Assembly (NCBI RefSeq): GCF_001677475.2
Contig: NZ_CP015229.1
From: Escherichia coli
GTDB taxonomy: Bacteria; Pseudomonadota; Gammaproteobacteria; Enterobacterales; Enterobacteriaceae
DNA: 64,000 nucleotides
Reading direction: 5' to 3' (one strand)
Shown: positions 26,713 to 27,009 of the stretch, piece after piece
Layout: each line of letters opens with the position of its first letter
Position numbering within the stretch: position 1 is the first letter of the stretch
Made by a program: the position numbers and the translations under genes
Notes under the pieces: model-generated
Told to the model about the DNA's origin: nothing
Database searches by the model: none
What the model saw: the letters and a program-made list of their open reading frames with translations, nothing else

Positions 26713-27009
26713 TCAGAACACTTTCTTAAATGGTTTCACTGAAACGTGTTCATAGACACCTGCCGCTACGTACGGGTCAGCATCGGCCCAGGCCTGAGCT
26801 GCTTCCAGCGATTCAAATTCAGCAATAACGGTTGAGCCAGTAAATCCCGCAGCCCCTGGATCGTTACTGTCTACCGCTGACATTGGACCAGCTGTCAACA
26901 AACGACCTTCATCATGCAGTAACTGTAAACGTGCTAAATGTGCCGGACGAACGGAAAGGCGTTTTTCGAGGCTATCAGCTTTGTCTTGAGCGTAAATAAC
27001 ATACAACAC
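26713..27009 (-). CDS. yciI: YciI-like protein, 98 aa (GTG start)
   Basis: Track ORF 26713..27105; the only plausible 98-aa start is the GTG encoding [10 protein letters not shown]. Confidence 0.75.

Follow-up and report, generated by a model that had tools for sequence, protein, structure and literature searches.

The genes yciI, kch, ychJ and rnm (yciV), located in the 64,000-nucleotide stretch of Escherichia coli DNA analyzed here (hereafter the window), very probably start by ordinary Shine-Dalgarno (SD)-led initiation at GUG or UUG, the protein beginning where it is annotated in K-12. These four starts are already known: they are identical to those of the NC_000913.3 annotation, correspond to canonical initiation and are largely confirmed by experiment. 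The initial annotation had proposed that the four genes reach their reference lengths only from non-ATG codons. The GTG codons of yciI, kch and ychJ and the TTG codon of yciV do give the K-12 lengths of 98, 417, 152 and 293 aa, respectively, and comparative, thermodynamic and published experimental data support these K-12 codons as the true starts of the four genes. In the mechanism that we propose, the 3' end of 16S rRNA would pair with an SD located 5-8 nt upstream of the start and thereby position the 30S subunit. The initiator tRNA-fMet would read GUG or UUG as methionine by first-position wobble, the protein thus starting with (f)Met at the K-12 position. The in-frame DNA found upstream of yciI, kch and ychJ would be an untranslated leader, stop-free by chance in E. 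coli. We infer that the weaker start codons may keep the expression of these low-abundance proteins modest; in reporter assays, GUG and UUG initiation reaches about 10-100% of that of AUG (10.1101/063800).

The window is the narG to pdeR segment of an E. coli chromosome. Its gene order is that of K-12 MG1655, the CDSs of which were mapped over 1,284,000-1,349,000; collinearity is interrupted by IS elements, by an island of 1.5 kb and at the tyrT region. Each K-12 CDS was placed by blastn, and its start codon, its protein length and the in-frame ATG, GTG and TTG codons back to the previous stop were recorded. Genes of the window strain are 95-100% identical to those of K-12, and a 2-kb query covering tonB, kch, yciI and yciA has matches in 5,422 of the 5,426 complete E. 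coli genomes, with a top identity of 99.4%. The window strain differs from K-12: it is devoid of ISZ and IS5U and carries additional DNA between rluB and btuR. In the closest complete genome, the lengths given by PGAP for yciI, kch and ychJ are those of K-12. The ORF list of the window includes entries of 130 aa for yciI, 423 aa for kch and 159 aa for ychJ because these three genes have in-frame start codons upstream of the annotated one (Table 1). The initial annotation had stated that the ORF extends further upstream in each case. This holds for yciI, kch and ychJ but not for yciV, which has no in-frame ATG, GTG or TTG upstream: its frame is open over 13 codons, back to a TGA, and its first possible initiation codon is TTG 39364. 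The over-extension of yciV expected from longest-ORF calls does not occur, since the longest yciV ORF already begins at this TTG.

Table 1. Start regions of the genes with non-ATG starts in the window (aa, amino acids; SD, Shine-Dalgarno sequence)
Feature	Position	Strand	Remarks
yciI CDS	26713..27009	-	GTG 27009-27007, second codon TTG; 98 aa + stop; start and length as K-12 b1251
yciI upstream in-frame starts	GTG +2 codons (27015), TTG +21 (27072), ATG +32 (27105)	-	
yciI SD AAGGAG	27018..27023	-	8 nt upstream of GTG, from sequence
yciI 5' region	27010..27105	-	frame open 35 codons; non-coding
kch CDS	25160..26413	-	GTG 26413; 417 aa + stop, as K-12 b1250
kch SD AGAGG	26419-26423	-	5 nt upstream of GTG
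kch unused in-frame GTG	26431	-	+6 codons
ychJ CDS	7017..7475	-	GTG 7475; 152 aa + stop, as K-12 b1233
ychJ SD GGGAG	7483-7487	-	7 nt upstream of GTG
ychJ unused in-frame TTG	7496	-	+7 codons
rnm (yciV/trpH, RNase AM) CDS	39364..40245	+	TTG 39364; 293 aa + stop, as K-12 b1266
rnm SD GGGAG	39353-39357	+	6 nt upstream of TTG
rnm in-frame GTG, codon 8	39385	+	
ychE CDS	15941..16588	+	GTG in window and K-12; 215 aa; without upstream in-frame start
sohB CDS	47003..48052	+	GTG in window and K-12; 349 aa; without upstream in-frame start; SD -7.5 kcal/mol
lapA CDS	57915..58223	+	GTG in window and K-12; 102 aa; without upstream in-frame start

SD strength was calculated as the energy of the duplex formed with the 3' end of 16S rRNA, the spacings (5-8 nt) being read from the sequence. 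The SD analysis that the initial annotation had suggested as a check favors the annotated codons, which out-pair every upstream candidate in the four genes (-6.9 to -8.2 kcal/mol). This bears on the alternative that the upstream-extended ORFs are true or additional products (a 130-aa YciI from ATG 27105, a Kch longer by six residues and a YchJ longer by seven), in which case the K-12 annotation would be truncated. These frames are indeed open and contain start codons. Furthermore, a minority of E. coli genes have upstream starts, with 17 uTIS for 806 TIS in the TRAINSPOTTER data (PMC13245402). However, the SD of the extended ORFs is weak or absent. For yciI, the duplex energy amounts to -8.0 kcal/mol for the annotated GTG versus -4.5, -0.9 and -1.5 kcal/mol at the GTG, TTG and ATG located 2, 21 and 32 codons upstream, respectively. 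For kch, it is -7.1 kcal/mol at GTG 26413 versus -1.2 kcal/mol at the upstream GTG. The upstream TTG of ychJ pairs better, but still less well than the annotated GTG 7475 (-6.0 versus -8.2 kcal/mol). Within yciI, the TTG at codon 2 ties with the GTG (-8.0 kcal/mol). An Rfam scan of the whole window revealed no RNA element at any of the four starts.

The yciI start was compared among 80 loci, using one genome per species, from Escherichia to Vibrio and Pseudomonas. All 80 orthologs align from residue 1; 79 of them are 98 aa long and one is 99 aa long. The start codon is mostly GTG (63 loci), with several switches to ATG (15) or TTG (2), and an SD core is found at the corresponding spacing in 76 of the 80 loci. 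An extended YciI is not conserved: in 58 of the 80 species, an in-frame stop precedes the start by no more than 12 codons, and an in-frame ATG is found upstream in only eight of the 80. The stop overlaps the SD (tTAAGGAG) in many genomes of Citrobacter, Enterobacter and Kosakonia. The ATG located 32 codons upstream is specific to E. coli; E. albertii carries a GTG 30 codons upstream instead. Likewise, the family profile begins at the first residue of the 98-aa protein, residues 1-98 aligning with positions 1-98 of 99 of the YciI equivalog NCBIfam NF008473 (179.2 bits for a cut-off of 111). A single residue distinguishes YciI of the window strain from that of K-12: S replaces P in GPM[P/S]AVD. 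A promoter and terminator scan of positions 26600-27300 gave a single promoter-like match, on the (+) strand of tonB just upstream of this gene, and nothing bearing on the yciI start.

The initial annotation had also named experimental N-termini as a check, and for yciI a published peptide gives the answer: it begins at the GTG and not at an upstream codon. This N-terminal peptide, which covers residues 1-17 of 98 and begins with MLYVIY, is assigned to the GTG at NC_000913:1310863-1310865 (PMC13245402 Table S1 row 271), and it is the sole YciI N-terminus in the accessible part of that table. The peptide therefore excludes initiation at the codon-2 TTG, which would give MYVIY..., and at the GTG two codons upstream, which would give MPVLY.... 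In that table, the GTG is listed as a database TIS with Ribo-RET, INRI and REPARATION support (PMC13245402 Table S1). Besides, INRI-seq reports an in-frame internal TTG in yciI, at +108 nt (26898-26903, codons 37-38, TTG TTG), in three of five replicates with 10.9 CPM (PMC9825163 Table S3). This codon has no in vivo Ribo-RET signal and its SD is weak (-3.5/-4.6 kcal/mol); initiation at this place is probably an in vitro artefact.

Of the 80 yciI loci, those of E. coli and E. albertii alone have kch adjoining yciI, leaving one outgroup for comparison. In E. albertii, the upstream GTG of kch is replaced by GCG, so that no in-frame start codon precedes the annotated GTG. Hence, the upstream codon that would extend Kch is missing in the only relative that can be compared. 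kch is reported to have an internal start for its RCK domain. Our literature search found nothing relevant on the start codon of this gene. Kch matches the profile of the Kch voltage-gated K+ channel (NCBIfam NF007828) from its first residue, with 646.7 bits for a cut-off of 425 and residues 1-402 aligned with positions 1-403 of 403. In INRI-seq, the annotated kch start has the highest signal of the four genes (95-218 CPM, five of five replicates; PMC9825163 Tables S2, S3, S6). The kch template in that study spanned the upstream GTG, and the table contains no alternative TIS for this gene (PMC9825163).

The YchJ homologs that were found are mostly 151-152 aa long. The codon homologous to the ychJ GTG is TTG in Salmonella and GTG in Cronobacter and Buttiauxella. 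None of these three genera has an in-frame start upstream of it, and stops are located seven codons upstream in Salmonella and Cronobacter, which argues against the seven additional YchJ residues. Residues 1-152 align with positions 1-154 of 154 of the YchJ profile (NCBIfam NF002449; 293.6 bits for a cut-off of 141), which thus also begins at residue 1. The annotated start is TRUE in INRI-seq, with 9-11 CPM (PMC9825163). YchJ of Klebsiella oxytoca is called as a 156-aa protein from an ATG four codons upstream, and a GGAGG-led TTG is found at the homologous position; this call may be a four-residue over-extension.

According to INRI-seq Table S2, the annotated TIS of ychJ, kch, yciI and yciV are all TRUE in vitro (PMC9825163), the criterion being that footprints of the initiation complex lie 12-18 nt downstream of the codon. 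For none of the four genes does Table S3 of this study contain an upstream in-frame alternative TIS, which is a further argument against the extended ORFs. However, the INRI-seq templates include a leader of only about 30 nt, so that the yciI TTG and ATG located 21 and 32 codons upstream fall outside them, a point that leaves some room for the longer YciI. By the criteria of the INRI-seq authors, in vivo Ribo-RET gives 0/FALSE at all four starts, which belong to low-expression genes (PMC9825163). For yciI, this result conflicts with the "Ribo-RET" flag found in the TRAINSPOTTER table (PMC13245402). N-terminal peptides of Kch, YchJ and Rnm do not appear in the examined part of Table S1 (PMC13245402), and none of the four genes occurs in the TetRP paper (PMC4909307). 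All these experimental data come from K-12 and not from the window strain. The start contexts of the window are those of K-12 for yciI, kch and rnm, save for a synonymous TAT/TAC difference in rnm codon 6, and that of ychJ differs from K-12 by one base upstream of the GTG. On this evidence, the reading of the extended ORFs as products of yciI, kch and ychJ is largely refuted and we regard it as highly improbable.

For rnm, TTG 39364 is very probably the main start. The protein beginning there would have the N-terminus (M)SDTNYAVIYDLHSHTTVSDGCLTPEALVHR. The best 120 hits of the Rnm homolog search include only E. coli and Shigella proteins with 98-99% identity; representatives and three encoding contigs were used instead for the comparison of starts. 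Two diverged enterobacterial relatives (93% and 89% aa identity) have kept the TTG, the SD (CAGGAG or GGGAG) and codons 2-7; one of them shows the changes T4S and N5Q. In both, the DNA directly upstream of rnm is diverged beyond recognition. Therefore, conservation begins at the SD and TTG, as at a coding boundary. INRI-seq classifies the TTG as TRUE, with 6-15 CPM in five of five replicates (PMC9825163).

The alternative is that rnm is translated partly or mainly from the in-frame GTG at codon 8 (39385), giving a 286-aa protein, the TTG form being minor or an annotation convention. E. coli Rnm has about seven additional N-terminal residues relative to its family profile: residues 9-282 align with positions 2-275 of the RNase AM/Rnm profile (NCBIfam NF047791; 504.3 bits for a cut-off of 375). 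Moreover, residue 4 of the homologs with PDB structures 9etk and 2yb1, and residue 2-4 of most of the 150 distant Rnm representatives, lie opposite E. coli residue 10. The typical family start therefore coincides with the codon-8 GTG. INRI-seq Table S3 also lists a peak attributed to an ATG that is out of frame at +16 nt and lies 5 nt away from this GTG (PMC9825163). However, the GTG has almost no SD (-1.9 kcal/mol versus -6.9 kcal/mol at the TTG). In addition, the INRI-seq tables, which record the TTG peak in every replicate, contain no in-frame TIS at +21 (PMC9825163). The preservation of codons 2-7 in the two relatives, despite their diverged upstream DNA, is also what would be expected of coding sequence. 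We thus consider initiation at codon 8 quite unlikely compared with initiation at the TTG. The structure 7UG9 corresponds to the annotated 293-aa Rnm, but this protein is presumably recombinant and so has no bearing on the native start.

Two other observations concern the surroundings of the rnm TTG. First, INRI-seq Table S3 contains out-of-frame peaks on both sides of it, at a GTG located at -7 nt (39356-39358, 30 CPM) and at the ATG located at +16 nt (39379-39381, 20 CPM), both seen in vitro only (PMC9825163). Second, rnm is called as a 307-aa protein in some E. coli lineages (MMSAQKHYP...CAL-SDTNYAV; protein P0237 on 172 contigs, and also P0197 and P0268). The ATGATG present in the rnm leader (39300-39364) does not share the rnm frame in the window. 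Judging from the translations, the A-run that precedes the rnm SD would be shorter by one base in the strains with 307-aa calls. These calls would be genuine over-extensions past the TTG.

A related possibility is that one gene makes two N-terminal proteoforms. Most plausibly, this gene would be rnm, with a 293-aa form starting at the TTG, which includes an Enterobacteriaceae-specific 7-residue tail, and a 286-aa form starting at GTG 39385; otherwise, it would be yciI, with ATG 27105 adding 32 residues under some condition. Alternative in-frame starts are known elsewhere in E. coli, for instance in speA and in prs, where an ATG lies three codons after the annotated GTG (Ribo-RET/TRAINSPOTTER literature). 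rnm resembles such genes by its second in-frame start-like codon (GTG8), located at the family-typical N-terminus. Unlike them, the four genes have no experimental alternative in-frame start in the tables consulted, save the in vitro yciI TTG at +108 nt. The existence of two proteoforms appears very unlikely. In other respects, the four starts that we retain, those of K-12, are similar to near-cognate starts of E. coli in general, which are likewise SD-led, decoded as fMet and scattered over the genome, often on moderately or weakly expressed genes. Examples are the GTG of cra and the TTG of rpsT, found in PMC13245402 Table S1. In contrast to infC, with its AUU start codon, the four genes studied here give no evidence that the choice of codon serves autoregulation.

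Besides these four genes, ychE, sohB and lapA also have GTG starts (positions 15941, 47003 and 57915) and were absent from the initial annotation. Non-ATG starts thus account for seven of the 63 starts of the window (11%). Among known E. coli genes, AUG, GUG and UUG represent 83, 14 and 3% of the starts, i.e. about 17% of non-ATG starts (bioRxiv 10.1101/063800). The window is therefore not enriched in non-ATG starts, the deviation being towards fewer (two-sided binomial p = 0.24). The presence of seven non-ATG genes in 64 kb, with kch adjoining yciI, could be viewed as a regional peculiarity of this segment, such as co-regulated weak translation. However, the count refutes such a cluster, and the genes belong to unrelated operons and lie on both strands; we give this explanation a practically negligible probability.

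The initial annotation had also expected longest-ORF calls to over-extend the genes that it named. Such over-extension is not particular to non-ATG genes: 16 ATG genes of the window also have upstream in-frame starts, and the proportion of genes with such starts is similar for non-ATG genes (3/7) and ATG genes (16/55). Over-extension specific to non-ATG genes was thus rejected (Fisher p = 0.67). Since upstream starts are about as common in ATG genes, the longest-ORF problem is general and not special to non-ATG genes. Simply choosing the longest ORF would give wrong starts for 19 of the 62 K-12-annotated genes mapped here. Because ATG genes make up 16 of these 19, evidence from the SD and from conservation is needed to call starts, irrespective of the start codon. 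The relevance of the four starts is restricted to annotation hygiene: they are already correct in the reference (all four) and in PGAP output (yciI, kch and ychJ), and they bring no new biology.

The comparison with K-12 also revealed differences that are located away from these starts. The ISZ element that K-12 carries between tdk and adhE is missing at positions 11300-11870 of the window, and IS5U, located between ychE and oppA in K-12, is missing at 16600-17250. The coordinates in the matching K-12 segment (L001) are 10427-11406 for the ISZ region and 15500-16694 for the IS5U region. Between rluB and btuR, the window carries an insertion of 1.5 kb relative to K-12 (43880-45435). This island includes two ORFs, one of 340 aa at 44041-45063 (+), whose product has a lipoprotein-like signal (MIRYSGIFLSLLMLSGC), and one of 102 aa at 45073-45381 (+); neither has a Pfam match. 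Of the 5,426 complete E. coli genomes, 1,237 have a match to the island, and the two ORFs are annotated there as hypothetical proteins. Finally, the tyrT region (5347-5965, - strand) contains a single tRNA-Tyr(GUA) gene (5881-5965) compared with two in K-12 (tyrT and tyrV). Three RtT repeat units lie in tandem after this gene, at 5703-5834, 5525-5656 and 5347-5478 (-), and the locus looks like a repeat-mediated rearrangement.
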